Origin: Bacteroidia bacterium | GTDB lineage: Bacteria; Bacteroidota; Bacteroidia; JACCXN01 | Length of the DNA stretch: 64,000 nt | Assembly (NCBI GenBank): GCA_046299555.1 | Contig: JBKBHS010000001.1 | Location: forward strand, 928,009 to 992,008 | Reading direction: 5' to 3' | Part shown: positions 2,837 to 43,505 of the stretch, piece after piece | How the letters are laid out: every line of letters begins with the position of its first letter | How positions within the stretch are numbered: position 1 is the stretch's first letter | Translations under genes and position numbers: made by a program | Notes under the pieces: model-generated | Told to the model about the DNA's origin: nothing | The model's input: the letters and a program-made list of their open reading frames with translations, nothing else | Database searches by the model: none

Positions 2837-2842
2837 ATAATT

Positions 2843-3766: not shown

Positions 3767-3796
3767 TTTGTTTTTGGCTTTTTAAAGTCTTAAAAT

Positions 3797-4867: not shown

Positions 4868-4884
4868 AAAAGGTATATGAAAAT

Positions 4885-10704: not shown

Positions 10705-13700
10705 TTAATCTCCTACAACAGTTACAGGGCCATTTTTTACAACATCTTCTCCGTATTCGTTTTTATATTTTATGATATAATAGTAGGTGCCCGGTGCAAC
10801 TTTTTTACCATTAAAAGTACCATCCCATCCATCTGTTCCTTGATATAGTTGCTGTCCCCAACGATTAACGATAGTTAGGTCAATTCCTTTTAAAAACACA
10901 TCGTTTACTCCATCGCCATTAGGTGTAAATGCATTAGCAACAGGAATTACACGGATTACCAGCGAATCGTTTACTTCGCTCTTACATTCTCCTTCTGTAA
11001 CAATTACGTATACAACATATCCATCTTTTAGAGCTGATGTTTGGTAAATATTGCTACTGCCACTTTGAACGCTATTATTGTTTAAAAAGAATTCATAATT
11101 ATCATATCCACTTGGAGATGCGGTAAATGTTACAAGTTGGTTACTATATATGGTATTATTTATAGCATCCGAAGTTAATGTTACAACAGGCAAGGGATTT
11201 ACAATTACCGTAACCGGTATTCTTCCACCGCTGTTTATACATCCTTCAGTACTTTCTGATTCAATATAATATGTTGTAGTAGCAAATAATGCTCCGGTAT
11301 TATAAGTAGTTCCGGTGTATAATAAAACTCCTCCTGTTGCTGCGTTCCACCAATTTATTTGTGCTCCTGTAGTTGATGTGGATGCAGTTAATATGGTACT
11401 GTCTCCGGCACAGATTTCAGTATCTCCTGCAACCAGTGAAGGAGCATTTGGTAATGGATTTACAACTATTGTAACAGGAGTTCTACCACTTAAAGATGTA
11501 CATCCAAATTGATTTGATGTTTCAACATAGATTGTAGTGGTAGTTAATGCTGTAAATGAATAAGGGTTATTGCTTAATAAATTACCACCTATTGGAGCAT
11601 CATAAAATGAATATGTAACGTTTCCACCGGTAGAACCACTTGCTGTTATTGTAACATTTGTACCAAAGCAAACGGTATCACCACTTGTTGTAATTGTAGG
11701 AGGTGTTGGATTTGGTGCAACAACTATGGTTACAGGAGTTCTTGAAGTATCACTTAAACAACCGCTCGTATTGCTTACTTCTAAATAATAGGTGGTTGTT
11801 GAGGTAGGTGATACTGTTAATGGAGAATTTCCTAAAAAGTTTCCTCCGCTTGGGCTATCATAAAAAGTATAAATTATTGTTCCACCCGTAGAGCCGCTTG
11901 CTGTAATAATTGTTGATTCTCCTACACATATTGTATCATCGCTAACTGAAATAGTTGCAGGAGTTGGTGTTGGATTTACAACGATATCTACCGGAATTCT
12001 TCCTGAAGGCAATGAACATCCATCACTATTAATAACTTCTAAATAATAAGTTGTGCTCGTAGTTGGAGAAACACTCAGAGGAGAATTTCCTAAAAAATTT
12101 CCTCCGGTTAATGCGTCATAAAAGTTATAACTTATATTTCCTCCAGTTGAGCCACTTGCAGTTATGAGTGTACTGTCACCGGAACAAATGGTATCATTAC
12201 TTACAGTAATAGTTGGAGTAGTTGGTGTTGGATTAACCGTTATAGTAACAGGTTGGCGACCTCCTGTAGCAAGACACCCGCTTGTTGTGCTTACTTCCAA
12301 ATAATAAGTTGTAGTAGAAGAAGGACTTACTGTTAAAGGAGAATTTCCTAAAAAGTTTCCTCCAGTAGCTGCATCATAAAAACTATAAACAATACTTCCC
12401 CCAGTAGAACCACTGGCTGTTATTGTTGTGCTGTCTCCAGCACATATTGTATCATTTGTAGTTGTAATAGTGGCCGATGTTGGAGTGGTATTTACAGTAA
12501 TCGTATAAGGTTGTCTTCCTCCATTAGCTAAGCAACCTGAAGTATTACTTACTTCTAGATAATAGGTGGTGGTACTAGTTGGAGATACTGTTAAAGGTGA
12601 ATTTCCTAAAAAGTTTCCTCCTGTTAATGCATCATAAAATGAATAAATAATTGTTCCACCACTAGATCCGCTTGCAGTTAGCGTGGTACTTTGACCTGAA
12701 CAAATAGTGTCATTAGTTGCTGAAATTATGGCTGCTGTTGGAGTTGGATTAACAGTTATGGTTATTGGAATTCTTCCTCCTAAAGCAACACAACTATCAC
12801 TATTTATTGTTTCGATATAATAAGTTGTAGTATTGGTTGGTGATACTGTTAAAGGTGCTGATCCTAAAAAGTTACCTGCTGTAGCTGCATCATATACATT
12901 GTATATAATTCCACTTCCTCCGCTTGAACCACTTGCATTTATAGTAGTAGATTGTCCTGCACAAATAGTATTATTTGTAGCACTTACAGTAGGTGAAGTT
13001 GGAGTTGGATTTACTGATACATTCGTATAGGCAGTATCCTTACAACCGTTAGCGGCTGTTCCAATTACGCTGTATGTGGTATTGGTTGTAGGTGAGATAT
13101 TTATACTCGATGATGTTGATGAATTACTCCAAATGTAACTTGATGCTCCACTTGCTATTAGGGTAGTACTGTATCCATTGCAAACACTTACCGGATTCCC
13201 GGAATTAATTTGTACGGTTGGATTTGGTTTTACATAAATTGTTTTTGTTAAAGTTTGTTTTTTACCGCACACACCTTCTGCTAATAATACATATGTTGTT
13301 GTTGTGCTAGGAGTAACTGTTATGTTTTGCGTTGTTTGTCCACCTGGTGACCATAAATAGCTTGTCGCTCCGGCAGGACCATTTAAAACTACAGAATCGC
13401 CAAAACAAATAGAATCATTTGCAGAAGTTATTGCAGGAAATTGTATTCCTCCTGTTGCTTGTATACTATAATTACATATATCTCCTGCAAAACCATCAAT
13501 TAATAAGTAATAATCCTGACCGATTGTTAAATTATTTGCAGTAATGGTTAAAGTTGATGAACCTTCTCTAAAATCAGAAACCGGAGCAAATCCACAGCAG
13601 GGAGAGCTGGCTGTAAATATTTGCATTTGAATACCTCCTGAAGGATAATTACCTACCCAGCAATCGGTAATATTTACAGTTAATGTTATAGTTGTATTGG

Positions 13701-15291
13701 CAGCTGTAAATCTAATCCATGAATTATTATCTAATCTAACATCACATAAAGGAGCCCCTACTCCTGTATATGGAGGCGATGGTGCCACACCAAATACACT
13801 TCCTGGTTGGCATGTTCCGGGTGTGTAAGTGTAAGTTGGAGGATTATTTTGTTCTGCATTAGCGCGCATATTACATGGCCTGTCAGTAGTATAGGCTGCG
13901 CTGGTAGAACCACTGTATCCATCTAAATCACATATATATAATGCATCTGCACAATTATCGTTGGATGGAGATTGTACGCAAATTCCGAATTGTCCTGTAG
14001 TGTTTCCATTAAATGCCCAATATCTTAAATAAACAGTGCTTCCCGGTGTTAAGCCCGTAGCTTTAATAAAAGGCTTTAAATCATTTGCAGATCCTGGGTA
14101 ATTATAATCATCAGAACAAGCAATTTGGGTTAAAGATGTACAAGTGCCACTATAAAGCGCCATAGCAGCATCGTTAATTCCAAATCCCGGTTGAGGTACT
14201 ATGGTTACTATACCATTAGCGGGTACAGTTATGGCAAACCATACATCTTTGGGTTGAGGAGCAATATTAAAACCTCCTTGTTGTGGAGCAGATCCCCCAC
14301 TACAACTGGCAGGTATTGGTATTCCCGGCCCACTCGAAGTAGTAGCCCCAACGGTCGTAAATGTTAAGTAATTACACGCTGACGTTACCGGTGGTAATTG
14401 TATAGCATTACAAGGGTCATCATTTACTGGACTCGCACTTGCTGGACCTGTAACACAAATATTAAATGTACCTCCGCCATTTGAAAAATAGTAATCATAA
14501 ACTCTAACATAATAGGTATTACCGGGAATTAAACCAACTGCATTAATTACTTCATTTCCTCCCGAAAAACCATTGTCAACACAATTTAACGATATTAAAC
14601 TTCCACAAGTACCTGAAAAAAGTTGAACTACAGGGTCCATGCTACCATTAGGAGTTACTGTTATTGTTTGCACTGCGTTTGTGGCAATAAATGAAAACCA
14701 AACATCATCGTCTGCATTTCCTGTACATCCAGCTATTGATTGAGTAGCACCAACGGATGTCCCTGCTGTATTTACACATGAAGTATTAACATTTAAAGCA
14801 ATAGCTCCGCTGCAATTATCATTCGATGGAGCAGGAGGGGGATTGGTAACACATATGGTAAAATTTCCGGAACCTGAACCGGCAAAATAATGATATACTC
14901 TTATGTAATAACTTTGTCCAACGGTTAATCCGCTGGCAAATATCGTTTCGCTTTGGCCTGATAATCCATTATCTTGACATGCTAAAGTGGTTAGTCCGGA
15001 ACAAGTTCCTGAAAATAATTGAACAACAGGATCAAAAGAAGGTGAGGCTGTAACGGTTATTTGATGGCTTGTGGCAGTTGCTACAAAGCGATACCAAACA
15101 TCATCATCAGCGTTACCAACACATCCGCTCAATGTGCTTACTGTAGCACCTGTTGTTGTACCTGAATTTGGTGAAGAACAGTTTGCTGTAACACTAATTA
15201 AAGTTGCTGTAGCACAATTATCAGATTGGGCATTTGCATATAAACTCAATAAGATGCATGTAGTAAGCATCAAATAGTTAAATATTTTCAT
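10705..15291 (-). CDS. large cell-surface adhesin-like protein with T9SS type-B CTD (gliding-motility-associated C-terminal domain)
   Basis: 1528 aa; signal peptide; three N-terminal PPC-like domains (GNADDDVWYRF...YYIRVY); seven ~86-aa Ig-like tandem repeats; C-terminus ANAFTPNGDGVNDVF...RWGQQLY...WDG...GTYYYI matches type-B CTD. Confidence 0.85.
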   Translation of the reverse strand: MKIFNYLMLTTCILLSLYANAQSDNCATATLISVTANCSSPNSGTTTGATVSTLSGCVGNADDDVWYRFVATATSHQITVTASPSFDPVVQLFSGTCSGLTTLACQDNGLSGQSETIFASGLTVGQSYYIRVYHYFAGSGSGNFTICVTNPPPAPSNDNCSGAIALNVNTSCVNTAGTSVGATQSIAGCTGNADDDVWFSFIATNAVQTITVTPNGSMDPVVQLFSGTCGSLISLNCVDNGFSGGNEVINAVGLIPGNTYYVRVYDYYFSNGGGTFNICVTGPASASPVNDDPCNAIQLPPVTSACNYLTFTTVGATTSSGPGIPIPASCSGGSAPQQGGFNIAPQPKDVWFAITVPANGIVTIVPQPGFGINDAAMALYSGTCTSLTQIACSDDYNYPGSANDLKPFIKATGLTPGSTVYLRYWAFNGNTTGQFGICVQSPSNDNCADALYICDLDGYSGSTSAAYTTDRPCNMRANAEQNNPPTYTYTPGTCQPGSVFGVAPSPPYTGVGAPLCDVRLDNNSWIRFTAANTTITLTVNITDCWVGNYPSGGIQMQIFTASSPCCGFAPVSDFREGSSTLTITANNLTIGQDYYLLIDGFAGDICNYSIQATGGIQFPAITSANDSICFGDSVVLNGPAGATSYLWSPGGQTTQNITVTPSTTTTYVLLAEGVCGKKQTLTKTIYVKPNPTVQINSGNPVSVCNGYSTTLIASGASSYIWSNSSTSSSINISPTTNTTYSVIGTAANGCKDTAYTNVSVNPTPTSPTVSATNNTICAGQSTTINASGSSGGSGIIYNVYDAATAGNFLGSAPLTVSPTNTTTYYIETINSDSCVALGGRIPITITVNPTPTAAIISATNDTICSGQSTTLTASGSSGGTIIYSFYDALTGGNFLGNSPLTVSPTSTTTYYLEVSNTSGCLANGGRQPYTITVNTTPTSATITTTNDTICAGDSTTITASGSTGGSIVYSFYDAATGGNFLGNSPLTVSPSSTTTYYLEVSTTSGCLATGGRQPVTITVNPTPTTPTITVSNDTICSGDSTLITASGSTGGNISYNFYDALTGGNFLGNSPLSVSPTTSTTYYLEVINSDGCSLPSGRIPVDIVVNPTPTPATISVSDDTICVGESTIITASGSTGGTIIYTFYDSPSGGNFLGNSPLTVSPTSTTTYYLEVSNTSGCLSDTSRTPVTIVVAPNPTPPTITTSGDTVCFGTNVTITASGSTGGNVTYSFYDAPIGGNLLSNNPYSFTALTTTTIYVETSNQFGCTSLSGRTPVTIVVNPLPNAPSLVAGDTEICAGDSTILTASTSTTGAQINWWNAATGGVLLYTGTTYNTGALFATTTYYIESESTEGCINSGGRIPVTVIVNPLPVVTLTSDAINNTIYSNQLVTFTASPSGYDNYEFFLNNNSVQSGSSNIYQTSALKDGYVVYVIVTEGECKSEVNDSLVIRVIPVANAFTPNGDGVNDVFLKGIDLTIVNRWGQQLYQGTDGWDGTFNGKKVAPGTYYYIIKYKNEYGEDVVKNGPVTVVGD
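11190..13010 (-). repeat. seven tandem ~258-bp repeats (86-aa Ig-like domains) inside the adhesin gene
   Basis: Recurring DNA block ggagaatttcctaaaaagtttcctcc at ~11820, 12076, 12338, 12596 (variant at 12850); protein repeats NPTPT..TICxGxSTT..ASGS.GG...Y.FYDA.TGGNFLGNSPL.VSPT..TTYYLEV. Confidence 0.8.
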
Positions 15292-16289: not shown

Positions 16290-16463
16290 GTTACAAAACT
16301 GTCTAAACATAGATAAAAAACGGAAGCTTGATTTGATAATCTATCTACAAATTTAAATTAAATAAACCACAATATTTATATATGCATTTAATAAAGATAT
16401 TAATAAAAATGTAAAAATATTTCCTTGTAAATCAATATAAAACAACAAAAGCTTAAAATAATA

Positions 16464-16494
16464 TTTGCAGATATTAAAACCCTTAGTACATTTG
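16464..16494 (+). promoter_or_regulatory. rRNA operon promoter P1 (Bacteroidetes sigma-A type)
   Basis: TTTG -N19- TACATTTG matches the -33 TTTG / -7 TAnnTTTG consensus with 19-nt spacing. Confidence 0.6.
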
Positions 16495-16579
16495 CAGCCC
16501 TCAAACAAAGAAATCAACAACGTTCATTTGAAAAGTTTGAGAATGAAAAATAAATAAATAAAATTTTTTTCATAAAAAG

Positions 16580-16610
16580 TTTGCAGATTTAAAAACTGTA
16601 TGTACCTTTG
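16580..16610 (+). promoter_or_regulatory. rRNA operon promoter P2
   Basis: TTTG -N19- TACCTTTG; part of a ~100-bp repeat unit (aaaagtttgcagatttaaaaa...tacctttgcagcccctta). Confidence 0.65.
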
Positions 16611-16679
16611 CAGCCCCTTAAAAATGAATGTAGAGAAATAGAGGTTTAAAAACGAAGAGAAAAATATTTTAAAAAAAAG

Positions 16680-16710
16680 TTTGCAGATTTAAAAAAGGTG
16701 TTTACCTTTG
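16680..16710 (+). promoter_or_regulatory. rRNA operon promoter P3
   Basis: TTTG -N19- TACCTTTG; near-identical repeat of P2. Confidence 0.65.
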
Positions 16711-16784
16711 CAGCCCCTTAAAAATGATTAAGGGATTAAAACTTGAAAAGTAAATCGAAACAAAAAATATTTTTTTAAAAAATA

Positions 16785-16815
16785 TTTGCAGATTTAAAAA
16801 AGGTGTTTACCTTTG
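16785..16815 (+). promoter_or_regulatory. rRNA operon promoter P4
   Basis: TTTG -N19- TACCTTTG; near-identical repeat of P2/P3. Confidence 0.65.
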
Positions 16816-16990
16816 CAGCCCCTTAAAAATGATTCCTTAAAAATGATTAAGGGTTTAAAAAGTAAATTAAAACATTTTATTATATTATTAAGTTCTTTGA
16901 AAGATTTTATTGAAGAGGTAAAGGTAGCGTAATTGAATGATCACACCCCGTGATCAATGAGCCAACTCCAAATATTTTAAAATTTTTTAC

Positions 16991-22023: not shown

Positions 22024-23907
22024 ATGAGATTCTTTTTAAGTTTTATAATTATACCTTTTGTATTTCACTCTTTCTCTTTTGCATCTCATCAATTTTCTTT
22101 AAAAATTGTAAATATTAATTCTGACTCAGTCAAAGTTTCATATCCATTATATTATTCTTTTTATTTTTCTTTTTCTGACTCTACTAATTATAATATTTGG
22201 AATGATAGTTCTTTAACTTTTATACATCGTTATGCATTTCATAAATATGGTTTAGAATGGCATAATGGCAATATTGGGCTTTCTAGAAATTCAATATTTT
22301 ACACCTATACAAAACCTGATTTTGGTTTTCAAGTAGGATTAAATGGTTTTGAAAATTATTTTTTTTCTTCAGAACCATTTAAAATTTTTCAAACCAGAAG
22401 ACCATATACTGAAATTTCTGTTGTATTAGGTTCTAATAAAGAACAAATTGCACGTTTATTACATACTCAAAATGTTAATGAGCGCTGGAATATTGCTTTT
22501 AGAATGAATAGAACGACATCTGAAGGTTTTTATTCGAGACAAAATGCGAATTTTAATTCCATACAATTACAATCTAATTATACTTCGAGAAATAAAAGAT
22601 ATGCGGCTATTTTTCAATCCAATTTTAATCGAGCTAATGCTTTTGAAAATGGAGGAGTAATTGATTCTGTTGATGTGCTTAATTCGGAGGAATTTTTAAA
22701 TGCACGTGGTATTCCAATTAATTTAAACGATGCGCGCAGACGAACTTCTGAAAATTCTGTTTGGATTAAGCAGTATTTTAATATAATTCATAAAGATTCT
22801 GTTTTAACAAATGATTCATTGTTTGAACATCGTTATTTTGTTAAAGCCGGATTGTCCAATATATCAGGTGTTTCAGGAAGGTATAGTTGGTTTAAGGACG
22901 AGGAAGCTGCTTTAGGTTTTTATTCTAACTTCAGAGATTCTATAACAAATGATTCGATAAACAAATTTAGTTTATATGATGAATTTCGTGCGCATGTTTA
23001 TTTTAATGATTTTGAGTTAAATGGTGGTATAAAATATGAATGGAATAAACTTAGTATGATTAATTACGATACTTTAGCTCAAAATTTAATTACTGTAAGT
23101 AGTTTGAACTGGCAAAATAAAAAAGGTAGTAATTTAGGTATAGACGCAAATTATGTTATTGCCGGATTTAATAGAAATGACTTTCGATTAAGAGCTTTTT
23201 TAAATTATAAGTTTTCAGAAGAATGGTTCCTAAATATTAATTATTTATCAGATTACAGAACACCTACTTTGCAGAGTTTGCGATGGGTTTCCAATAATTT
23301 TGAATGGAATAATTCTTTTAAGAAGGAATTATACAATGGAGGTTCTGCTTATTTAATTAATACAGACAGAGAATTTAAAGTAGGTGGAGGAATTCATTAT
23401 TTAACAAATCCTGTTTTTTACGATTTTGTTGCCCGACCAAAGCAATCCGATGGTAGTTCACAAATTGTACAAGCTTTAGCTGAAAAAACTTTTCAGGTTG
23501 GCAAGTTTTATTTAACCAACACTTTTGCATATCAGAAATCTTCTGCTGACTCCATTTTCAGAGTGCCGGAAATTATTTCTAAAAATGCTTTTTTCTTTCA
23601 GACAGATTTATTTAAACGTGCTATGAGAATTCAGTTGGGTGTTGATTTCTATTACTTTACATCCTTTACTCCTTATGCTTATATGGCAGCAAGTAATGTG
23701 TATTATCTTCAAAATAATCGATTAAGTGGTAATTATCCTTTCTTTGATGTTTTTCTAAATTTTAAAGTTAAAACATTAAGAGGTTTTATTATGCTGGATC
23801 ATGCTAATCAGGGGTTAATTGGAAATAATCAATATTATTTTATGCCGGGATATCCTTTTCCGGGAAGAACTGTAAAGCTTGGTTTAACTTGGGTGTTTAA
23901 GGATTAG
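22024..23907 (+). CDS. hypothetical outer-membrane beta-barrel protein (putative porin-like)
   Basis: 627 aa; N-terminal hydrophobic signal; rich in Y/F/N/S alternating strands; C-terminal ...LGLTWVFKD. Confidence 0.55.
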   Translation: MRFFLSFIIIPFVFHSFSFASHQFSLKIVNINSDSVKVSYPLYYSFYFSFSDSTNYNIWNDSSLTFIHRYAFHKYGLEWHNGNIGLSRNSIFYTYTKPDFGFQVGLNGFENYFFSSEPFKIFQTRRPYTEISVVLGSNKEQIARLLHTQNVNERWNIAFRMNRTTSEGFYSRQNANFNSIQLQSNYTSRNKRYAAIFQSNFNRANAFENGGVIDSVDVLNSEEFLNARGIPINLNDARRRTSENSVWIKQYFNIIHKDSVLTNDSLFEHRYFVKAGLSNISGVSGRYSWFKDEEAALGFYSNFRDSITNDSINKFSLYDEFRAHVYFNDFELNGGIKYEWNKLSMINYDTLAQNLITVSSLNWQNKKGSNLGIDANYVIAGFNRNDFRLRAFLNYKFSEEWFLNINYLSDYRTPTLQSLRWVSNNFEWNNSFKKELYNGGSAYLINTDREFKVGGGIHYLTNPVFYDFVARPKQSDGSSQIVQALAEKTFQVGKFYLTNTFAYQKSSADSIFRVPEIISKNAFFFQTDLFKRAMRIQLGVDFYYFTSFTPYAYMAASNVYYLQNNRLSGNYPFFDVFLNFKVKTLRGFIMLDHANQGLIGNNQYYFMPGYPFPGRTVKLGLTWVFKD

Positions 23908-23914
23908 TCAAAAT

Positions 23915-23990
23915 TCATAAGTCGTAAGTTCTAAGTCGTAAGTCATAAGTTAGAGGACAGAAGTCAGAAGTCAGAAAACAGAAACAGGAA
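23915..23990. repeat. imperfect heptamer-like tandem repeats (taagtcg/a; agaagtc)
   Basis: cataagtcgtaagttctaagtcgtaagtcataagt... acagaagtcagaagtcagaaaacagaaacagg. Confidence 0.6.
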
Positions 23991-23991
23991 T

Positions 23992-25068
23992 TTATCTTTT
24001 TCGTTGATCTTTTAAAATTTGTTTGGCGGTAATTCTTATCACGGAATAAGCTGGAATCGCTATCAACATTCCCAATACTCCATAAATTGTTCCTGCGGCA
24101 ATAACTACTAAGAAAATTTCAAGTGGATGTGCTTTAATACTCCTCGAAAAAATTAGTGGCTGAAAAACAAAATTATCGAGCAATTGAGTTCCAAACATGA
24201 TGATATAAGTTTTTAAATAAATGTTTGCTAAAGAAAATTCAGGACTTAAATATGACGCTGTAACAATAAAAAATGCAAACACCATTCCCATTAGTGGACC
24301 TATATATGGAATAATATTTAAAATAGCGGAAATGGTTGCAATAAGTAATGCATTTTTTATTCCCATTGCGCTTAGCCCAATAAAATTGCAGGTAAAAATG
24401 CAAATTACCTGAATGAATAATCCTATAAAATAGCGACTAAGTGTTTCTTTGCAATTTTTAATAATGGTACTTACAGAGTGTTTTTCAGCATCGGGTATAA
24501 GTAAAAATATTTTTTCTTTTATCAGCTCTTTATCTTTTATCAAAAAGAACGATATAAATATGATAGAGAAAAGTGCAATAAAAATATTTCCTGTAAATAG
24601 CAATGTATTACTTAGGGTATCGGCAATGTTTTTTGGATTAAATATGCTTAAAATTTTTTCCTGAAAAAACTCTAATACATTTCTATGGTCGTTTGGATAT
24701 AGCGATTGAAATATTTTGTCCAGTTTGTCAATTAAATGATAGAAATTGTCTTTTAGTAAAGTAATGTCTATGTAACTTAATGAATTTATTTGTTGATTTA
24801 TTAATGGAATAAATGATAAAATTATCGCGCTAATTATAGCTAAAAAAAGTAATAAAATTAGCGTAGCACTTAATGCTCTGGGAATTTGAAGTGTACGTTT
24901 GGCAATAGTGATGTTATTAAGCTTGTTTATCAAAGGGTCACTTATAAGCATAATTACAACAGAAATAGCCACATACATGGTAATGCTGAAAAAATTATAA
25001 ACTATAGCAGTAGCTAAAGCAGCTGCTATTAACCAAAAATAAGATTGTATGGAATTTTTTTGATACAT
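23992..25068 (-). CDS. AI-2E family transporter (PerM/YdiK-like permease)
   Basis: 358 aa; eight or more TM helices; typical AI-2E topology and conserved C-terminal region. Confidence 0.75.
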   Translation of the reverse strand: MYQKNSIQSYFWLIAAALATAIVYNFFSITMYVAISVVIMLISDPLINKLNNITIAKRTLQIPRALSATLILLLFLAIISAIILSFIPLINQQINSLSYIDITLLKDNFYHLIDKLDKIFQSLYPNDHRNVLEFFQEKILSIFNPKNIADTLSNTLLFTGNIFIALFSIIFISFFLIKDKELIKEKIFLLIPDAEKHSVSTIIKNCKETLSRYFIGLFIQVICIFTCNFIGLSAMGIKNALLIATISAILNIIPYIGPLMGMVFAFFIVTASYLSPEFSLANIYLKTYIIMFGTQLLDNFVFQPLIFSRSIKAHPLEIFLVVIAAGTIYGVLGMLIAIPAYSVIRITAKQILKDQRKR

Positions 25069-25111: not shown

Positions 25112-25777
25112 ATGTCTAAAACAGCTTTAATTGCGGGAGCCAGTGGCTTGGTGGGTTCGTATTGTTTAGAATATTTATTACAATCAAAAATACACGATAA
25201 AGTAATTTGTATTACCCGAAAAACCTTGCCTAATCAATCGCCATATTTGCAGCAGATAATAGCCGATGCCAACAATCTTGCTGAAACGTTAAGCGAACTA
25301 AAAGCTGATGATGTGTATTGTTGTATTGGTACCACTATTAACAAAGCGGGTACCCAGGAGGCGTTTAAACAAGTAGATTATACTTATGTGAAAGTGTTGG
25401 CCGAGCAATTAAAAAATAATGGTGCAACATCGTTTGCCGTTGTTTCTTCTATTGGTGCTGATGCAAAATCTTCTAACTTTTATTTGCGCATCAAAGGCGA
25501 AATGGAAAATGCCGTAAAAGCATGCAATTATACAAAAACTATTATTTTGCGACCATCCATGCTTTTAGGACCACGAAAAGAATTCAGGATGGGTGAGGCA
25601 ATAGGTAAAGTGTTTATGACTACTTTTTCATTTTTGTTTGTTGGCAAGCTTAAGCGTTACAAAGCCATTGAAGCCACTCAAGTAGCCAAAGCTTTAATAC
25701 ATTTTACGCAAGAAGATTTTAAAGGGCTAAAAGTTGTTGAGAATGAAGAGTTGTTAGAATTGAAAATTGTAAATTGA
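25112..25777 (+). CDS. NAD(P)H-binding oxidoreductase (atypical SDR/epimerase-like)
   Basis: N-terminal Rossmann motif LIAGASGLVGSY; ORF-track start at 25094 is a TTG, ATG at 25112 preferred. Confidence 0.7.
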   Translation: MSKTALIAGASGLVGSYCLEYLLQSKIHDKVICITRKTLPNQSPYLQQIIADANNLAETLSELKADDVYCCIGTTINKAGTQEAFKQVDYTYVKVLAEQLKNNGATSFAVVSSIGADAKSSNFYLRIKGEMENAVKACNYTKTIILRPSMLLGPRKEFRMGEAIGKVFMTTFSFLFVGKLKRYKAIEATQVAKALIHFTQEDFKGLKVVENEELLELKIVN

Positions 25778-25778
25778 A

Positions 25779-25968
25779 GATTACAAATTGCAGATTAGAA
25801 GATTAGAAGATTAGAAATTGAGATTGATAGAAACTAATTGAAATTAGTGGAGATTAATTGAAGAATTTCGTTAGAATGTATTAACGTTTTAACGTGTTAA
25901 AGTGTGAAAGTTGAAATGTATGGAAATTGGTTGAAACTTATTGAGATTTATTGTTTTGAATGTATACA
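25779..25968. repeat. dispersed intergenic repeat copy B1 ((agaagatt)n stutter + gagattgatagaaa/gattaattgaa + gtgttaaagt modules)
   Basis: ttgagattgatagaaactaattgaaattagtggagattaattgaag...gttagaatgtattaacg...gtgttaaagtg shared with copies A/C/D. Confidence 0.6.
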
Positions 25969-26204
25969 AATATCAAATCTTTCGAATAAAACGAATAATG
26001 AAATTTTTAATTCATAAATAATAAATAAATACACCTCGTCATTGTTCTTTTATCTTTTAGTTTGTCTTCTATTATCTGGCAACTGTAAACTGTTAACTGT
26101 CTTCTTTTATTAAACCACAGAGAACGCAAAGAATTACGCAGAGCGCCACAGAGAAATTTTTTTTATCACCCGTCCTTATTCTTTTTACTGATGGCATATT
26201 GCTT

Positions 26205-26346
26205 TAATTGCACATTGACTCATTTACACATTTATTAATAGCCAACTGCCAACTGCTAACTGCCCACTACCCACTAACGACTTACACCTGACTACTTATA
26301 CCTAAAAAACTAATGGCTAATGGCTTTTAACTAAATAACTAAAAAA
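26205..26346. repeat. dispersed intergenic repeat copy B2 (tcatttacacattta module + (gccaact)n stutter + ctaatggctaatggct...actaaataactaaaaaa module)
   Basis: 3' 40 bp nearly identical to 29427-29466; 5' module matches 1236-1256 and 29358-29380. Confidence 0.6.
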
Positions 26347-26463
26347 GCAACCTTTTTTTGCTAATACGTTGTATATGAGTAGAAAATTATTTTATTAAAT
26401 CGACCAATAGCTTTCTAAATTAGATTAAAACCTATAAAGTGCCACTAAAAACTTGTATTTCAA

Positions 26464-26494
26464 TTTGTTAAATTAATAAGATGTTATATATTTG
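26464..26494 (+). promoter_or_regulatory. promoter for the small secreted protein / T9SS cargo operon
   Basis: TTTG -N19- TATATTTG (Bacteroidetes -33/-7 consensus) ending ~23 bp before ATG at 26517. Confidence 0.5.
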
Positions 26495-26516
26495 TTAATT
26501 GAAAAATTTTAGATTC

Positions 26517-26804
26517 ATGAAAAAATATTTCTTAGTATTCGCATTGTTAATCATATCAGGAACTTTAGTTTTTGGACAAAGTAATTCTGATTGCGATTCA
26601 ACCAAATGGGCAAAAGAAGGAACATATCTTGTTAAAATAGTTGAAGGTACTGTAGAGTCTACTGATGTAAGGCCTAGGGAACTAACAAGTGATGAAAAGT
26701 GCTTTATAGAACAAAATAGACATCTTACAAATGATGTTATTTTTAGATTTGATTTATATACAGAAGTGATTATCTATTCAAAAAATAAAATCTCGGAGAA
26801 ATGA
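26517..26804 (+). CDS. small secreted hypothetical protein (95 aa), translationally coupled to downstream T9SS cargo gene
   Basis: ATG at 26517 gives MKKYFLVFALLIISGTLVFGQ signal peptide; stop overlaps next start (ATGA at 26801-26804). Confidence 0.55.
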   Translation: MKKYFLVFALLIISGTLVFGQSNSDCDSTKWAKEGTYLVKIVEGTVESTDVRPRELTSDEKCFIEQNRHLTNDVIFRFDLYTEVIIYSKNKISEK

Positions 26805-28336
26805 GAAAATTATATTTATTTACGTTTTTTACAATCTTGCTAGTTGGAAATACATATGCGCAGCCTGCAAATGATGCTTGTGCAAGTGCAACAGCATTAA
26901 CTGTTAATGGCTCTTTACTTTGTGGTCAAACAACAAATAATGCAACTACACAAACAGGAGAAGCTTGTGCAGCATCTGGAGGTGGAGTCACACCTAGAAC
27001 AGTATGGTACTCATTTACTGCAACAAGTTCTTCTATGATTTTAAATTACTTAAGAACGAATACGTCAAATTGTATAACACGATTAAGCATTTACGGACCA
27101 AATCCAACCTGTGTTCCCGGTGCCGGAGCTCAGTTATCAGGATTTGCCTGTATTGATGTATATACAGGAGATCCAGGAAAATATTTAACAATGTCTGGTT
27201 TAGTTGTTGGCGCCACTTATCTAATTCAAGTTAATGGGCAAGATTGTGGAGGTGGAAACGATAGATTTCATAATTTTTGTATAGGTGTTTATACTCCAAA
27301 TACAAATAATTCTGTATCTGCTCCATCTGTTATAACGGAATGTGGTACAACATATAATGGCTCAACACAAGGTGGGTATTCTCCCTCAGGAACTGGAGTG
27401 GGTTTTAGGAATTTAGACGGTAATAATAGTACTACTTGTCCTTCTTGTGCTACAGCAGGTGACGATGTTACTTTTGTTATAAATAACGATTCTTGGTTTT
27501 CATTTTGTACAGTTAATGCGGGTACTTGGCAAGTAACTTTTAGTGTTGGCACATGCGTATTCTCTGGAATAAATAGTGGTGCTCAAATGGCATTATTTAC
27601 TGGTAGCCCAACAGCGTTAACTTGGCATTCACAAGCTACAAATCCAACTTATGCAGGAGGATCGTGGACCTCTCCTACTATTACTTTAGCTGCTGGTGGA
27701 TGTGCATATATGGTTGTGGATGGATTTGCAGGTGATGCATGTACTTATTCTTATACAGTAACCAATCTTTCTGGTGGTTGTATTTTATTACCTATTGAAT
27801 TATTATCATTTAACTACACTAAAGAAGGAAACAATGTAAATATTCAATGGAAAACAGCCACAGAAACTAATAATGACTTCTTTACGTTAGAAAAATCAAG
27901 CGATGGAATTAATTATGAATTTTTCCAAAACATTAAAGGGGCAGGTAATTCTAATATGCCAATAGAGTATAAAACCAAAGATACTAATCCTTTTGAAGGT
28001 GTAACCTATTATCGCTTAAAACAAACGGATTATGATGGTAATTTTGAATATGTAGGAACAATTGCAGTTAAAACAAATAAAGCTGTTGAGAATATTGCAG
28101 TAATTCCCAACCCTGTTTTAAATAATGCAGAAATAAATTTCAATTCCAATTTAAATGGAGTTTCTCGCATTCAAATAATTGATATTACAGGTAAGCAAGT
28201 TTATACAGAAAGTATAAATACTAATGAAGGCCCAAACCGTTTTGTATTAAATACAGAAAATTATAATAAAGGGCTTTACTTCTTGGTTATCTCTAACGAA
28301 TTCGGTACTGAAAAATTAAAGTTTGTAAAAGAGTAA
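26801..28336 (+). CDS. secreted protein with two PPC-like domains and a T9SS type-A C-terminal sorting domain
   Basis: 511 aa; signal peptide; N-terminal domain resembles the PPC-like domains of the 1528-aa adhesin (ANDACASATAL...TVWYSFTA); C-terminal IAVIPNPVLNNAEINF...KGLYFLVISNEFGTEKLKFVKE Por secretion tail. Confidence 0.8.
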   Translation: MRKLYLFTFFTILLVGNTYAQPANDACASATALTVNGSLLCGQTTNNATTQTGEACAASGGGVTPRTVWYSFTATSSSMILNYLRTNTSNCITRLSIYGPNPTCVPGAGAQLSGFACIDVYTGDPGKYLTMSGLVVGATYLIQVNGQDCGGGNDRFHNFCIGVYTPNTNNSVSAPSVITECGTTYNGSTQGGYSPSGTGVGFRNLDGNNSTTCPSCATAGDDVTFVINNDSWFSFCTVNAGTWQVTFSVGTCVFSGINSGAQMALFTGSPTALTWHSQATNPTYAGGSWTSPTITLAAGGCAYMVVDGFAGDACTYSYTVTNLSGGCILLPIELLSFNYTKEGNNVNIQWKTATETNNDFFTLEKSSDGINYEFFQNIKGAGNSNMPIEYKTKDTNPFEGVTYYRLKQTDYDGNFEYVGTIAVKTNKAVENIAVIPNPVLNNAEINFNSNLNGVSRIQIIDITGKQVYTESINTNEGPNRFVLNTENYNKGLYFLVISNEFGTEKLKFVKE

Positions 28337-28357
28337 TCTGAGTAAATATTAAAAAAA

Positions 28358-28393
28358 TTAAGCCTGCCCTAGTGGTGGGCTTTTTTGTTTTTT
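28358..28393 (+). terminator. probable rho-independent terminator
   Basis: Weak stem aagcc...ggctt / gccc...gggc followed by ttttttgtttttt. Confidence 0.4.
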
Positions 28394-28469
28394 AGGAGTT
28401 AGGGAATAGGTGTTAGTAGTAAGTCTTAAGTTATTAGTCGCTAGGCATAAGGAGTAAGTGAAGTGGTTG

Positions 28470-28585
28470 GTGTGTGTTAAAGTTAGAACGTTAGAATGTG
28501 TTAATGTTTGAGATTAATAGAAACTCTTTGAGATTGATAGAAATTAGAGATTAATTGAAATTCTTAGAGATTGAAATAGGATATA
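28470..28585. repeat. dispersed intergenic repeat copy C
   Basis: gttagaatgtgttaatgtttgagattaatagaaactctttgagattgatagaaattagagattaattgaaattcttagagattgaaatagg; preceded by word-like stutter aggagttagggaataggtgttagtagtaagt... Confidence 0.6.
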
Positions 28586-28703
28586 TTTGTTTCAGATTAA
28601 AAGTAATTTTTTGACTTGTATTAGTAAAATAGAATTAATCCTGAATTTCAAGACAAGCAATGTTGGAATAGCTGGGGTTTTTGATGAATTCAATTATTTC
28701 TTC

Positions 28704-28979
28704 TTAGTGGGAAAGAATAATTTCTGCTAGCATGCTGGTTGATTTATTTCCTGTTCTTAGCCAAACTATTTTAGGGGGTATCCCATAAAGGTTAGATTAA
28801 TCGAAAAAATCCGCATCAAAGGTAACTATTGTGTAGTTATGATCTTTTGCAAATTTCCAAATCTGAATGTCTGTATTGTTCTCAATTCCAAGAGTTCTTA
28901 CTTGAGCAGCAAGTGGAAAATAATCCCTAATTTTTTCTACTATTCTAAAAGAAATATTTTGATCAAATAATAGTCTCAT
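28704..28979 (-). pseudogene. DUF5615 (PIN-like) toxin gene interrupted by in-frame TAA after codon 60
   Basis: 60-aa ORF MRLLFDQNISFRIVEKIRDY...TIVTFDADFFD stops at 28797-28799; same frame continues SNLYGIPPKIVWLRTGNKSTSMLAEIILSH to a stop at 28704-28706, matching the usual C-terminal half of DUF5615 proteins. Confidence 0.55.
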
Positions 28980-29203
28980 TAAGCTACTCGTAAACGGTTT
29001 TCACGGTCAGCAGCATAGGCTAAACAGGCTTGAATATCCTCTTCTGTAAGTTCCGGATAATCCAATAAGATTTCCTTTGTAGTCATTCCGGAAGCTAAAT
29101 AGCTTAAAATATCGTACTCTGAAATACGAGTATTTCTAATACATGGTTTTCCGAAGCGTTTTTCGGGGTTTATTTTAATTATAATAGAATAATCTTTCAT
29201 CAT
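28979..29203 (-). CDS. DUF433 domain protein (antitoxin-like partner of DUF5615)
   Basis: 74 aa; ...RFGKPCIRNTRISEYDILSYLASGMTTKEIL.DYPELTEEDIQACLAYA typical of DUF433; 1-nt overlap with downstream DUF5615 ORF. Confidence 0.75.
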   Translation of the reverse strand: MMKDYSIIIKINPEKRFGKPCIRNTRISEYDILSYLASGMTTKEILLDYPELTEEDIQACLAYAADRENRLRVA

Positions 29204-29289
29204 GTTGTATTGCCAAAATTTATCATTATTTAGCTAACTCAAATTTTAGCAAAAAAATATGAATGTTAAATTTTAAAGTAAATATTTAA

Positions 29290-29462
29290 AGCGTTTGAAT
29301 TAATAATAGAGACTAATTGAAACTCATAGCGATTGATAGAAATTAAAGATTAATTGTGATTCATTTACATATTTACACATTTTCACATTCTCAAATTGGC
29401 AAATCATCAAATTCTCAAATCAATATAACTAATGGCTAATGGCTTATTACTAAATAACTAAA
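29290..29462. repeat. dispersed intergenic repeat copy D (all three modules contiguous)
   Basis: gagactaattgaaactcatagcgattgatagaaattaaagattaattgtgattcatttacatatttacacatttt + caaattctcaaat stutter + aactaatggctaatggcttattactaaataactaaaaaaa. Confidence 0.65.
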
Positions 29463-29481
29463 AAAATCACTACCTTTCCCT

Positions 29482-30858
29482 GTGCAAAAAAATGATCCTA
29501 AAATTATTCGCGCATGGGCTATGTACGACTGGGCAAACTCAGTGTATCCGCTCGTAATTACTTCTACTATTTTTCCCATTTATTATACCGCTGTTACCAC
29601 ACATCAGGGTTCTGATATGGTGCAGTTTTTAGGAATGAATTTTAAGAATACCGCACTATATACCTATGCCATGGCATTTGCTTATTTATTGATTGCAGCT
29701 GTTGCTCCATTGCTTTCAGGTATTGCCGACTATGGCGGTAAGAAAAAAGGATTTATGATGTTTTTCTGCTATGTTGGTGCTATAGCTTGTTCTGCAATGG
29801 CTTTATTTACAGGACCTGAAAATTTATGGATAGGAATATTAACCATTGTTTTGGCTTGTATAGGATATTCGGGAAGTATTGTATTTTACAATGCCTATTT
29901 GCCGGAAATAGCTACACCCGATATGCAAGATAGAGTAAGTGCCAAAGGCTATTCACTGGGTTATATAGGAGGAGCAATTCTTTTAATTTTAAATTTAGTA
30001 TTGATATTAATGCCCGATTTATTTTATGATGTAGCAGGAAGAATAAACGAATTAAAGCTTGTTGAAACAACTCTTACAGATGATGAAGCCCGTGAAAAAG
30101 TGCTTTCATCTTTATCGGGTATATCCTCGCGCATTTCATTTTTTACTACCGGCATTTGGTGGATTTTATTTGCGCATTACAGTTTTTACTATTTGCCCAA
30201 AAATGTATTTAATCGCAAGCCAGAAGGAAATATATTGTTTAAAGGTTATCTGGAATTGATAAAAGTGTGGCAGGAGTTAAAATCAAACCCTACTTTAAAA
30301 AAATATCTGAGTGCATTTTTTAGCTATAATATGGGCGTGCAAACAGTAATGCTGGTAGCTACACTTTTTGGCAGTAAAGAATTGCAATTGGAATCAGGCG
30401 AATTAATAATGACCATATTAATTATTCAGTTTGTAGCTATAGGCGGTGCTTATTTGTTTTCGGGTTTATCGGGCAAATATGGCAATATTTACATTTTACG
30501 CGTTGCTACCTTGCTGTGGATAGGTATTTGTTTTATGGCCTACTTTGTTACATCAGCAGTGCAGTTTTATGTTTTAGCATTTTTTGTAGGATTGGTAATG
30601 GGAGGCATACAATCTTTATCGCGCTCTACCTATTCTAAACTTTTGCCCGAAACTATTGACCATGCCTCTTATTTTAGTTTTTATGATATTTGCGAAAAAT
30701 TGGGAATAGTGCTTGGAATGGGGCTTTTTGGAATTATAGAAGAAGTATCAGACAGTATGCGAAATTCTGTGATAGCTTTATTTCTGTTTTTCCTGATAGG
30801 TTTCTTACTTTTGTTGCGGATAAATAATAAATTGACCATCCAACAATCAAAACACTAA
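29482..30858 (+). CDS. MFS transporter, UMF1/Atg22-like family
   Basis: 458 aa; 12 predicted TM helices; N-terminal AWAMYDWANSVY motif typical of UMF1 family; start codon GTG at 29482 (alternative ATG at Met14). Confidence 0.7.
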   Translation: MQKNDPKIIRAWAMYDWANSVYPLVITSTIFPIYYTAVTTHQGSDMVQFLGMNFKNTALYTYAMAFAYLLIAAVAPLLSGIADYGGKKKGFMMFFCYVGAIACSAMALFTGPENLWIGILTIVLACIGYSGSIVFYNAYLPEIATPDMQDRVSAKGYSLGYIGGAILLILNLVLILMPDLFYDVAGRINELKLVETTLTDDEAREKVLSSLSGISSRISFFTTGIWWILFAHYSFYYLPKNVFNRKPEGNILFKGYLELIKVWQELKSNPTLKKYLSAFFSYNMGVQTVMLVATLFGSKELQLESGELIMTILIIQFVAIGGAYLFSGLSGKYGNIYILRVATLLWIGICFMAYFVTSAVQFYVLAFFVGLVMGGIQSLSRSTYSKLLPETIDHASYFSFYDICEKLGIVLGMGLFGIIEEVSDSMRNSVIALFLFFLIGFLLLLRINNKLTIQQSKH

Positions 30859-30861
30859 TTA

Positions 30862-31584
30862 ATGGTAGTAGATATTTTTATTCCCTGTTTTGTAGATCAG
30901 ATATATCCGCAAACGGGGATGAATATGGTAAAAATACTGGAGCACATAGGTTGTGGCGTAAATTATAATATAGAGCAAACCTGTTGTGGACAGCCTGCGT
31001 TTAATGCAGGTTTTTGGGATCACTGCAAAGAAATTGGAGAAAAGTTTATACGCGAATTTCCTGAAAATCGTCCTATCGTAATGCCTTCTGCTTCCTGTGC
31101 CGGCTTCGTAAAAAATGGCTATCCGGAAATGTTTCATAACTCTGTTTTGCATAATGAGTACAAGCAGGTTCGTAAAAATATTTATGAGTTTACCGATTTT
31201 TTGGTAAATGTTTTAAAGATTACCGATTTAGGAGCAAAGCTCGAAGGTAAAGCAACCTTTCATGATTCCTGTTCAGGATTACGAGAGTATGGAATAAAGC
31301 GCGAACCAAGGGTATTACTTGAAAAAGTAAAAGGGCTTGAATTTATTGAAATGAATGATTGCGAAACTTGTTGTGGTTTTGGAGGCATGTTTTCAGTAAA
31401 GTTTGAACCTATTGCAGTAGCTATGGCAGAACAGAAAGTTGAAAATGCCTTGGCAACAGGAGCAGAATATTTAATATCTACCGATTTGTCGTGTTTGATG
31501 CACATGGATGGCTATATTAAAAAGAAAAAATTACCTATAAAATGCATGCATATTATTGATGTGCTTGTAACCGGAGTTGAATAA
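30862..31584 (+). CDS. (Fe-S)-binding cysteine-rich (CCG) domain protein, LutA-like
   Basis: 240 aa; two CCG-type motifs (TCCGQPAFNAGF; CETCCGFGGMFSV); size and N-terminus (DIFIPCFVDQ) as in LutA. Confidence 0.7.
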   Translation: MVVDIFIPCFVDQIYPQTGMNMVKILEHIGCGVNYNIEQTCCGQPAFNAGFWDHCKEIGEKFIREFPENRPIVMPSASCAGFVKNGYPEMFHNSVLHNEYKQVRKNIYEFTDFLVNVLKITDLGAKLEGKATFHDSCSGLREYGIKREPRVLLEKVKGLEFIEMNDCETCCGFGGMFSVKFEPIAVAMAEQKVENALATGAEYLISTDLSCLMHMDGYIKKKKLPIKCMHIIDVLVTGVE

Positions 31585-32461
31585 TAAAAATAAAATTATG
31601 GAATTAATGTTAAAAGAAAATGCGCTGAAAGGCAAAACCATTTTAGTTACCGGAGGAGGTACAGGCCTTGGCAGATCAATGTCAGAAGCGTTTTTAAAGT
31701 TGGGTGCCAATATAGTTATATGCAGTAGAAAGCAAGATATAATTGAAAAAGCAGCCGCTGATATGATGCAGCAATATGGAGGCGAAGTATTAGGATTACC
31801 TTGTGATGTGCGAAAATATGATGAGGTAGAAAAAGTTATTGAAGCTGCATATGCAAAATTTGGCGGTATTGATGTGTTGGTAAACAATGCAGCAGGGAAT
31901 TTTATTAGCCCTACAGAACGCTTGAGCCACAAAGCTTTTGATGTAATTGTGGATATTGTTTTAAAAGGAAGTTATAACTGCACATTGGCACTTGGCAAAA
32001 AATGGATTGCAGAAAAAAGAAAAGCCAACGTATTAAGCATCGTTACTACCTATTCGTGGACAGGTTCCGGTTATGTAGTTCCATCAGCTTGCGCTAAAGC
32101 AGGTGTGTTGGCGCTTACACGCTCATTAGCTGCTGAATGGGGAAAATACGGCATTCGCTTAAATGCCATTGCTCCGGGTCCATTTCCTACAGAGGGGGCT
32201 TTTAGTCGTTTGTTTCCTGAGGCAGCAACCAAATTAATGGATCCTAAAAAACGAATTCCATTGCAGCGCTATGGCGAACATCATGAGTTAGCAAATTTGG
32301 CTTGTTACTTAGTGTCTGATTTTGCAGCCTATATAAATGGAGAAGTTGTAACTATTGATGGTGGCGAATGGTTGCATGGTGCCGGAGAGTTCAATGCCTT
32401 TGATGCTGTACCGCAAGAAATGTGGGATATTATTGAAAAACAAGTGAGGGGGAAGGGTTAA
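31577..32461 (+). CDS. SDR family oxidoreductase, 2,4-dienoyl-CoA reductase-like
   Basis: TGGGTGLG Rossmann motif, NNAAGNF, YxxxK (SACAKAG); likely true start ATG at 31598 (MELMLKE). Confidence 0.75.
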   Translation: MNNKNKIMELMLKENALKGKTILVTGGGTGLGRSMSEAFLKLGANIVICSRKQDIIEKAAADMMQQYGGEVLGLPCDVRKYDEVEKVIEAAYAKFGGIDVLVNNAAGNFISPTERLSHKAFDVIVDIVLKGSYNCTLALGKKWIAEKRKANVLSIVTTYSWTGSGYVVPSACAKAGVLALTRSLAAEWGKYGIRLNAIAPGPFPTEGAFSRLFPEAATKLMDPKKRIPLQRYGEHHELANLACYLVSDFAAYINGEVVTIDGGEWLHGAGEFNAFDAVPQEMWDIIEKQVRGKG

Positions 32462-32575
32462 TTAGCTAATTTGATGATGTGGTAATTTGATAATTTGATA
32501 ATGTGATAATAGAACAATCAGTATCTATTAGTTTCAATCTATTTCAATAAATCTCAACGTTTAAACATTAATACT
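32462..32575. repeat. dispersed intergenic repeat copy E (inverted orientation) with (gataatt)n stutter
   Basis: Reverse complement of caatcagtatctattagtttcaatctatttcaataaatctcaac = gttgagatttattgaaatagattgaaactaatagatactgattg resembles the gagatt/gattgaaa units of copies A-D. Confidence 0.5.
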
Positions 32576-32595
32576 TTCAAACTAGTCAACTAAGA

Positions 32596-41816: not shown

Positions 41817-43454
<1,638 letters not shown>

Positions 43455-43505
43455 TTATAGAGTTTTAGAGTGGTTAAAATGAAAATATAAATAAAGTTAA
43501 GTAAA

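Follow-up and report, generated by a model that had tools for sequence, protein, structure and literature searches.

A probable slippage-built, non-coding repeat spacer upstream of a type IX secretion cassette in an uncultured Bacteroidia bacterium

The subject of this analysis is a gene-free region at positions 25778-26498 of a 64-kb stretch of DNA (64,000 nucleotides; hereafter the window) from an uncultured Bacteroidia bacterium. The window is AT-rich, with a G+C content of 34%. On the left, the region abuts a gene for an NAD-dependent epimerase family protein (25112-25777, plus strand), the stop codon of which occupies 25775-25777. On the right lies a two-gene cassette associated with the type IX secretion system (T9SS): the first gene encodes a 95-residue signal-peptide protein (26517-26804, plus strand, ATG at 26517) and the second encodes a 511-residue cargo protein with a T9SS sorting domain (26801-28336, plus strand). 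Further out, the gene calls are a Porin_10 gene (22024-23907, plus strand) and an AI-2E transporter gene (23992-25068, minus strand) on the epimerase side, and a DUF5615/DUF433 toxin–antitoxin (TA) pair (28797-29203, minus strand) and an MFS transporter gene (29482-30858, plus strand, ~3 kb downstream of the region) on the cassette side. An earlier interpretation, made from the letters of this DNA alone (the sequence-only reading), described the region as the longest gene-free stretch outside the rRNA leader. At 721 nt, or 739 nt counted to the ATG at 26517, it is the longest in the entire window and exceeds even that leader (678 nt); the interval at 28337-29481 holds the two small TA genes. 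The largest open reading frame (ORF) in the region spans 40 residues and none reaches 60, which agrees with the description of the region as ORF-free.

Syntenic contigs from relatives were collected by means of epimerase homologues with 92, 88, 79, 78, 78, 76, 75 and 75% amino-acid identity. These contigs are divided into clade I (the window, L056 and L057) and clade II (L058, L059, L061, L062, L063 and L007), with epimerase identities to the window of 88% for L057, 78% for L058 and 75% for L063. In this comparison, the right end of the region is a predicted promoter of the T9SS cassette. The sequence TTTG-N19-TATATTTG at 26464-26494 (plus strand), with TTTG at 26464 and the TATATTTG box at 26487-26494, is an exact match to the Bacteroidota-type consensus (TTTG at −33, TAnnTTTG at −7). 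Both boxes are kept in the window, L057, L058 (where the promoter sequence reads TTTGTTAAATTAATAAAATGTTTTAAATTTG) and L061, which are all four genomes that have the cassette, and the promoter proposed for the downstream operon in the sequence-only reading is thereby upheld. Full matches to TTTG-N19-TAnnTTTG number eight in 64 kb, a count that 22 of 100 shuffles also reach. Four of the eight are rRNA promoters: they stand in tandem at 16426-16832, each as TTTG-N19-TAccTTTG within a ~105-nt repeat upstream of the 16S gene, and confirm the promoter consensus of this organism. An invertible promoter was considered and rejected, as the only inverted pairs measure 13-20 nt with 75-92% identity and do not enclose the promoter, and four same-strain assemblies contain a single orientation.

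Upstream of the promoter, the region is built from short, imperfect tandem repeats. Tandem Repeats Finder (TRF) returns 14 rows with periods of 7-21 nt and array matches of 72-92%, which together cover 203 of the 721 nt; the corresponding coverage in 200 dinucleotide shuffles is 12.4 ± 18 nt (maximum 88). Tandem direct repeats of 5-11-nt units, the mark of a simple-sequence assemblage, are therefore present beyond chance, and the word-like stutters listed in the sequence-only reading are all found where it placed them. Two properties that it did not mention are the opposite base bias of the two halves and the start of the stutter inside the epimerase gene. The C content is 2-5% in the left part (25720-25960), and the G content is about 7-13% in the right part (25960-26350). 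The first stutter block (25732-25825) is C-poor and consists of a 17-nt AGTTGTTAGAATTGAAG array, AATTGAA heptamers and GAAGATTA octamers, the latter repeated 5.4 times at 25776-25816. The last 15 codons of the epimerase gene (25732-25777) lie within the 17-nt-period stutter, and the clade I epimerase ends in ...ENEELLELKIVN, four residues longer at the C-terminus than that of clade II. Repeat growth thus seems to have reached into the epimerase coding sequence.

Octamer stutters of TTAACGTG and GTGTGAAA follow at 25874-25916 (the combined TTAACGTG/GTGTGAAA stutter at 25881-25916) and include the words gttagaatgt and gtgttaaagt, which recur at 1131-1165 and 28489-28509. The central block (25962-26205) contains an A/T-rich stretch, an AACTGTA array (2.9 copies, 26081-26100), a T-poor block of the form CCACAGAGAA-N21-CCACAGAGAAA (26115-26156) and a run of eight T residues. 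To its right lies a G-poor, C-rich array of GCCAACT, GCTAACT and GCCCACT heptamers (26226-26303, plus strand), in which GCCAACT is repeated four times at 26241-26268, and then CTAATGG with 2.3 copies at 26310-26325. Within the window, tandem heptamers of the TAACTGN type are confined to this region. Past the repeats, the sequence AAAAAAGCAACCTTTTTTTGC (26341-26362, plus strand), which is conserved in the window, L057 and L061, marks the point of divergence from a second copy near the MFS gene, and it may be a relic of an MFS promoter segment or a weak A/T hairpin. The remaining AT-rich stretch up to the promoter (26363-26455) is free of repeats and shows the lowest identity in the alignment of the window with L057 (columns about 710-785).

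Comparison with L057 indicates how the region changes. The L057 spacer is 695 bp long and aligns end to end with that of the window at 84% column identity, similar to the 76-85% observed at third codon positions of the flanking genes; the average drift is therefore at about the neutral rate. The larger indels sit in the repeat arrays. The window is longer by 46 nt of GAAGATTA and module-1 words in the first stutter block, by one 7-nt unit in the TTAACG stutter at 25874-25916, by 7 nt in the AACTGT array and by 10 nt of ATAA-type sequence, and L057 is longer by 21 nt, or three GCCCACT-type heptamers, and by an 8-nt duplication. Indels in steps of the repeat unit are the signature of replication slippage, and on this alignment evidence the region evidently changes by that process. 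The central block contains a 58-nt perfect match to L057 within a ~160-nt stretch of about 93% identity. The 58-nt identity is somewhat above the neutral expectation (p about 0.01 by a rough estimate) and is not shared by any other genome compared. This block is partly old: its first part has a counterpart in L061, and the T-poor block is specific to clade I (window and L057). In L058, the same flanking genes enclose a 202-bp spacer that has the promoter and no stutter. In L056, L007 and L062, the contig terminates within the spacer, as expected if its words are multi-copy.

The same alignments establish that the region is non-coding. A hydrophobic 34-residue ORF on the minus strand (26093-26197) carries a 2-nt indel and has lost its ATG in L057, and the 40-residue minus-strand ORF is also broken in this closest relative. 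The G-poor half contains an 87-codon stop-free frame in L057, where the window has stops and a frameshift. Decay of a former gene was likewise rejected: in a tblastn search with all ORFs of at least 50 residues from the relatives and the window, the only matches were stop-free frames of the orthologous L057 spacer and the region's own.

At the boundary between the two halves lies module 1, an array of decamers with the consensus GARAYTNRTW. The region contains two copies on the plus strand: copy a (25811-25873, repeat family D6) and copy b (25903-25961), the orthologous conserved array at the switch from C-poor to G-poor sequence. Module 1 comprises four to seven 10-nt units, in which a G every 10 columns is invariant in eight aligned sequences. 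An nhmmer profile built from other genomes only finds seven matches in the window, all of them intergenic: 25903-25961 (E = 5e-11), 32562-32511 on the minus strand (7.6e-7), 25816-25860 (2e-6), 28528-28591, 1169-1197, 29306-29336 and 28509-28536. Between the clades, module 1 is 81-85% identical, compared with 56-68% at third codon positions, so that its conservation goes far beyond that of neutral sites. A shuffle control for this identity was uninformative because free end gaps yield short alignments, and the nhmmer E-values were used instead.

The placement of module 1 is also retained. Orthologous copies are shared by the two clades at three places: downstream of the epimerase gene, upstream of the MFS gene and, in reversed orientation, in the spacer between the SDR and TilS genes. 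The spacers from T9SS to MFS and from SDR to TilS align at 74% between clades. The layout of the latter is the same in the window (32462-32595), L063 (8263-8397) and L058 (9087-9216): a C-poor TAATTTGA/GATAAT stutter is followed by the reversed, G-poor module 1, which ends ~34 nt before the TilS start codon. The occurrence of module 1 in both orientations relative to the neighbouring genes argues for a role at the level of DNA. At all 11 of the 11 copies in the lineage, the 80 nt upstream have more G than C and the 80 nt downstream have a lower skew; module 1 therefore marks the switch from C-poor to G-poor sequence. This order of C-poor tract, module 1 and G-poor tract survives reverse complementation. 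A universal rule of C-poor then G-poor for every spacer was rejected, the order being one of stutter spacers. Deamination of C to T on the non-template strand does not explain the bias, as the C-poor half is A-rich and not T-rich.

Module 1 is without a hairpin, and intrinsic DNA curvature, as might arise from AAATT-like tracts with a 10-nt period, was rejected as its property, subject to the parameter values used. In a wedge model with Bolshoy parameters, its copies average 4-14 degrees and mostly fall short of the mean for the window (10.4), the highest peaks of which are ordinary phased A-tracts. The MFS-CCG-SDR block (29482-32461, compared with L058 and L063), which lies between module-1 copies, was also considered as a recent horizontal transfer. 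Between clades, the MFS, CCG-domain and SDR proteins share 94-98% identity and the neighbouring proteins 64-80%, but third codon positions within the block are only 56-70% identical, which points to strong constraint rather than recent transfer. Decamer arrays similar to module 1 are common in metagenomes of other taxa, nearly always between genes, although the search pattern is of low complexity and these arrays need not be homologous. In five metagenome contigs of other taxa (L110, L116, L121, L134 and L137; also in L068, L071 and L114), an intergenic element recurs in which a direct array of GAAATTNNTN decamers is followed by TGCTCGCTTCGCTCGCGA, an inverted decamer array and a GCAGCCGAAGGCTGC hairpin; it matched no Rfam family.

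Two further modules lie on the right side of the region. Module 2 (26206-26239, plus strand; repeat families D8 and D9) has the sequence CATTGAYTCATTTACACATTTA, an octamer stutter of CATTTACA, and is also found at 29354-29400; its match between 26213-26234 and 1234-1255 (95% over 22 nt, 36.2 bits) is marginal. Module 3 (26295-26346, plus strand), with the form (CTAATGG)2-CTTTTAACTAAATAACTAAAAAA, is paralogous to the stretch directly upstream of the MFS promoter: 26308-26346 matches 29427-29465 at 95% over 39 nt with 61.9 bits, whereas the shuffle maximum is 34.2, and the module aligns across the window, L057 and L063. The three modules named in the sequence-only reading are accordingly real repeats at the places it gave, with module 3 strong, module 1 supported by its profile and module 2 marginal.

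The second set of modules is found in the spacer upstream of the MFS gene. Its right part (29290-29481, plus strand) runs from modules 1 and 2 through a G-poor stutter to module 3 and the MFS promoter segment, and its left part (28396-28600, plus strand) consists of a C-poor stutter and module 1. The TA pair separates the two parts, interrupting the spacer between two module-1 copies (28501-28563 and 29300-29362) that are 83% identical over 63 nt. In L058 and L061, the spacer between T9SS cassette and MFS gene is uninterrupted and contains a single module 1, and in L061 module 1 is present on both sides of the cassette. The sequence-only reading took the split arrangement of the modules to suggest insertion into, or decay of, a composite element. 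The modules are indeed contiguous at 29300-29465 and split in the region, and the split is partly due to extra lineage-specific sequence, namely the T-poor CCACAGAGAA block that is restricted to the window and L057.

The T9SS pair is present in both clades (window, L057, L058 and L061) and absent from L063, where only one spacer, of 257 bp, stands between the epimerase and MFS genes. This spacer is composed of module 1, a G-poor stutter like that of the region, and module 3; immediately past ACTAAATAACTAAAAAA, it changes to the type of sequence that lies in front of the window's MFS gene (ATCACTACCTTTCCCTGTGCAAAAAAATG). The paralogy of the two spacers and the deletion junction are thus directly visible in the alignments. 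In the simplest history, the region and the MFS-proximal spacer (28396-28600 plus 29290-29481) would be old paralogues that bracket the T9SS cassette, which would be why modules 1-3 exist twice, and the cassette would have been lost in L063 by recombination between the two module-3 copies. This history follows from the hybrid spacer of L063 together with the presence of the pair in both clades. As a separate observation, L063 is a mosaic across 2139-5025: its AI-2E transporter is 87-90% identical to that of clade I, its epimerase is only 75% identical, and two extra small genes lie between them.

A possible function of the G-poor half is suggested by its composition. The tract at 26226-26303 (C = 27, G = 6, C/G 4.5) is the top-ranked 78-nt tract with C above G for plus-strand RNA in the whole 64 kb, and it lies 160 nt upstream of the promoter. 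The top tracts for minus-strand RNA also fall in stutter spacers, at 28395-28472 and 32422-32499. Rho utilization (rut) sites have been defined as unstructured tracts of 78 nt with more C than G, with termination usually 10-100 nt downstream (PMC6407284). The tract at 26226-26303 has this length and composition, and the distance rule of that study would place termination before 26464. The epimerase gene is without a predicted hairpin terminator, although such terminators are used elsewhere in this organism. It is therefore suggested by composition and position that the G-poor, C-rich, structure-free tract is probably a Rho loading site, at which Rho would halt transcripts running on from the epimerase gene ahead of the T9SS promoter. 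The tract resembles rut sites in being unstructured over at least 78 nt, in having C far above G and in lying after a hairpin-less gene and before the next promoter, but rut sites are not normally tandem heptamers, and the rules come from work on E. coli, Salmonella and Bacillus rather than on Bacteroidota. Searches of the literature on low-complexity intergenic repeats in Bacteroidetes and on Rho in Bacteroidetes retrieved nothing specific.

Considered together, these results make it likely that the region is a non-coding spacer built by slippage from imperfect 7-, 8- and 10-nt repeats, with paralogous modules that bracket the T9SS cassette and a promoter at the right end, and that it is neither an RNA gene nor a mobile element. 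In the proposed mechanism, the imperfect tandem arrays would arise and change by replication slippage; the layout would run from a purine-rich, C-poor half through the decamer array, to which something probably binds, into a pyrimidine-rich, G-poor half; and recombination between the two module-3 copies could delete the cassette, as in L063. Several observations weigh against this interpretation or limit it. The 81-85% identity of module 1 and its recurrence at other loci go beyond pure slippage. The order of events can be read in two ways, with the cassette inserted together with the duplication or with the paralogues predating it. The T9SS operon is followed by both an intrinsic terminator and a stutter spacer, so that stutters cannot be regarded simply as replacements for hairpin terminators. 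The C-poor-then-G-poor order is true of stutter spacers but holds for just 24 of the 36 lineage spacers of at least 100 nt. Finally, the region is 100% identical and of constant length in four Logan assemblies of the same strain, which indicates that slippage is slow and the locus not hypermutable.

The most serious competitor of this interpretation is that nothing but the promoter has a function and the rest is simple-sequence DNA, produced by slippage and occasional duplication, with the base-biased halves a side effect of amplifying biased units. The near-neutral divergence from L057, the absence of the region from L058, the imperfect arrays that differ between clades and the fact that short AT-rich units often miss one base by chance are all consistent with such a by-product. 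However, module 1 is kept in position and sequence across clades (E = 5e-11, with identity above that of third codon positions), the ordered bias accompanies all 11 lineage copies, and the T9SS-to-MFS and SDR-to-TilS spacers retain 74% identity between clades. A purely neutral origin is thus possible but doubtful.

A more ambitious proposal goes in the opposite direction and would make the decamer array, (GARAYTNRTW)4-7, a functional, undescribed intergenic element at the purine-to-pyrimidine switch. With its flanking biased tracts, it would act as a bidirectional insulator, in which outgoing or crossing transcripts gain a G-poor, C-rich Rho-loading tract; hypothetically, any transcript leaving a stutter spacer in either direction would carry one. 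The array would also be a recombination substrate for gain and loss of the T9SS and TA cassettes. This proposal is unlikely; if it is true, the decamer arrays of other metagenomic lineages would represent a widespread unannotated class.

A small or long regulatory RNA, the locus type for which the sequence-only reading had judged the region a good candidate, is highly improbable. The long ORF-free stretch, the 58-nt block identical in L057 within its conserved surroundings, and the T8 run after this block would be compatible with an RNA gene. In contrast, the Rfam scan which that reading had proposed as a check yields nothing at the gathering score and, at E ≤ 10, only chance-level matches with E of 3.6-9.9. 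Folding is weaker than in shuffled sequences on both strands, with z-scores of +0.52 (plus) and +2.68 (minus) for the whole region and +0.73 and +1.68 for the conserved core (26020-26200). The reason is that each half lacks one partner of the G-C pair, and this three-letter composition prevents stable helices. The sole TAnnTTTG box on either strand of the region belongs to the downstream operon, no intrinsic terminator or terminator-like hairpin is predicted in the region, and the T-run is not preceded by a hairpin. The conservation in relatives by which the RNA proposal was to be judged is only partial: the same spacer exists in L057 and the promoter in four genomes, but L058 is without the repeats, and indeed without the whole region, and the conserved block, with its T-poor part, is absent from clade II.

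A decayed or split MITE (a miniature transposable element with inverted repeats), insertion sequence (IS) or other mobile element, the explanation that the sequence-only reading itself named as one that would undo its proposal, is very hard to credit. It could account for modules at four or more intergenic sites in 64 kb, for the two inserted cassettes (T9SS pair and TA pair) that are each flanked by module-1 copies, and for the contig breaks in three relatives. However, terminal inverted repeats (TIRs) are lacking, as the best pair is 13 nt long, with the promoter −33 region, which L058 retains without the rest, as its right arm; no transposase remnant was found, and the ORFs of at most 40 residues have no homologues. 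Within 64 kb, only 20-60-nt modules with 80-95% identity are shared, never a full-length unit, and the orthologous positions in distant relatives indicate vertical descent. The plasmid, phage and viral collections contain no similarity to the region.

A regulatory role of the repeats for the T9SS cassette, be it as a phase-variable contingency locus or as transcription-factor sites that tune the promoter, is equally implausible. In its favour, the repeats stand upstream of an operon for secreted or surface proteins and vary in unit number between relatives, and the 10-nt period of module 1 would bring sites onto the same side of the helix. However, every array is located upstream of the −33 box at a distance of more than 115 nt, the interval between the promoter boxes and the ORF contain none, the arrays are imperfect (72-92% matches), the same modules occur beside unrelated genes in both orientations, the L058 operon is driven without arrays, and the perfect tract in a promoter spacer, 5′ untranslated region or ORF and the within-strain length heterogeneity that characterize contingency loci are not seen, the four same-strain assemblies being invariant in length.

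The slippage-built spacer belongs to the known bacterial simple-sequence DNA, and its ordered layout and conserved decamer array go beyond earlier descriptions. Related short tandem repeats include the short tandemly repeated repetitive (STRR) heptamers of cyanobacteria. Assemblages of heptamer and similar repeats between genes have been reported from a few Bacteroidetes, from many Cyanobacteria and from some Beggiatoaceae, with TAACTGA direct repeats as one family, relatives with short repeat-free spacers, contigs that end in repeats and a suggested role in rearrangement (MacGregor 2015, PMC4679880). A general survey of long simple sequence repeats with units of 5-11 nt (Mrazek 2007, as cited in PMC4679880) reports that heptamers predominate and proposes that slippage gives rise to them. 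The region resembles these assemblages in its intergenic 7-nt and similar units with several units per spacer, in the existence of a relative with the same gene order and a short repeat-free spacer (here L058), in assemblies that break in the repeats, in a suggested link to gene rearrangement, and in TAACTGT/TAACTGC-type units. It differs in that exact tandem TAACTGA is absent, with one-mismatch variants AAACTGTTAACTG at 26087 and CAACTGCTAACTG at 26250, and in that its arrays are short, imperfect and ordered from C-poor sequence through a decamer array to G-poor sequence. Conserved or duplicated complex modules such as modules 1-3 are not described in PMC4679880.

Other modular repeat families are more distant. 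The repetitive extragenic palindromic (REP) units and bacterial interspersed mosaic elements (BIMEs) of enterobacteria and pseudomonads are similarly extragenic, combine a few short modules in varying ways, often stand at gene 3′ ends and occupy multiple loci. REP units are palindromic, form hairpins and are associated with a REP-associated tyrosine transposase (RAYT), whereas the modules in this region are non-palindromic, strand-asymmetric and fold worse than random; no palindromic units were found in the region. Pneumococcal BOX elements are modular, with tandem units and a stable secondary structure. The BrickBuilt MITE of Porphyromonas gingivalis, a member of the same phylum, has TIRs (PMC4596501). 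Both resemble the region in being intergenic composites of modules with variable internal tandem units, but they have defined ends, and the TIRs of BrickBuilt and the stable structure of BOX are both absent here.

For annotation, this locus indicates that long, ORF-free, word-like stretches in AT-rich Bacteroidota should not by default be taken as RNA genes, since slippage can also build spacers of this appearance. The constrained parts (promoter and decamer array) can be told from the fluid ones by comparison with relatives. The locus is also a clear example of a cassette bracketed by duplicated spacer modules, with a relative that displays the cassette-less recombination product, which supports the earlier suggestion that such assemblages are involved in rearranging genes. 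Assembly breaks at spacers of this kind in these lineages are likewise explained by the repeats. The decamer array and the ordered base bias would matter more should they turn out to signal insulation or Rho loading, as termination signals in Bacteroidota are poorly defined.

Repetitive or compositionally biased sequence is also present elsewhere in the window. The 84-nt gap between the convergent Porin_10 and AI-2E transporter genes is filled at 23906-23987 by a heptamer stutter of (AGTCATA)n and (AAGTCAG)n that starts at the stop codon. An ORF of 1528 residues (10705-15291, minus strand) contains approximately five tandem 258-nt (86-residue) repeats with 65-80% identity at 11622-13019 and probably encodes a large repetitive surface protein. 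Finally, two short spacers are close to a three-letter alphabet: 43452-43512 has no C in 61 nt, and 55342-55406 has only two G in 65 nt.

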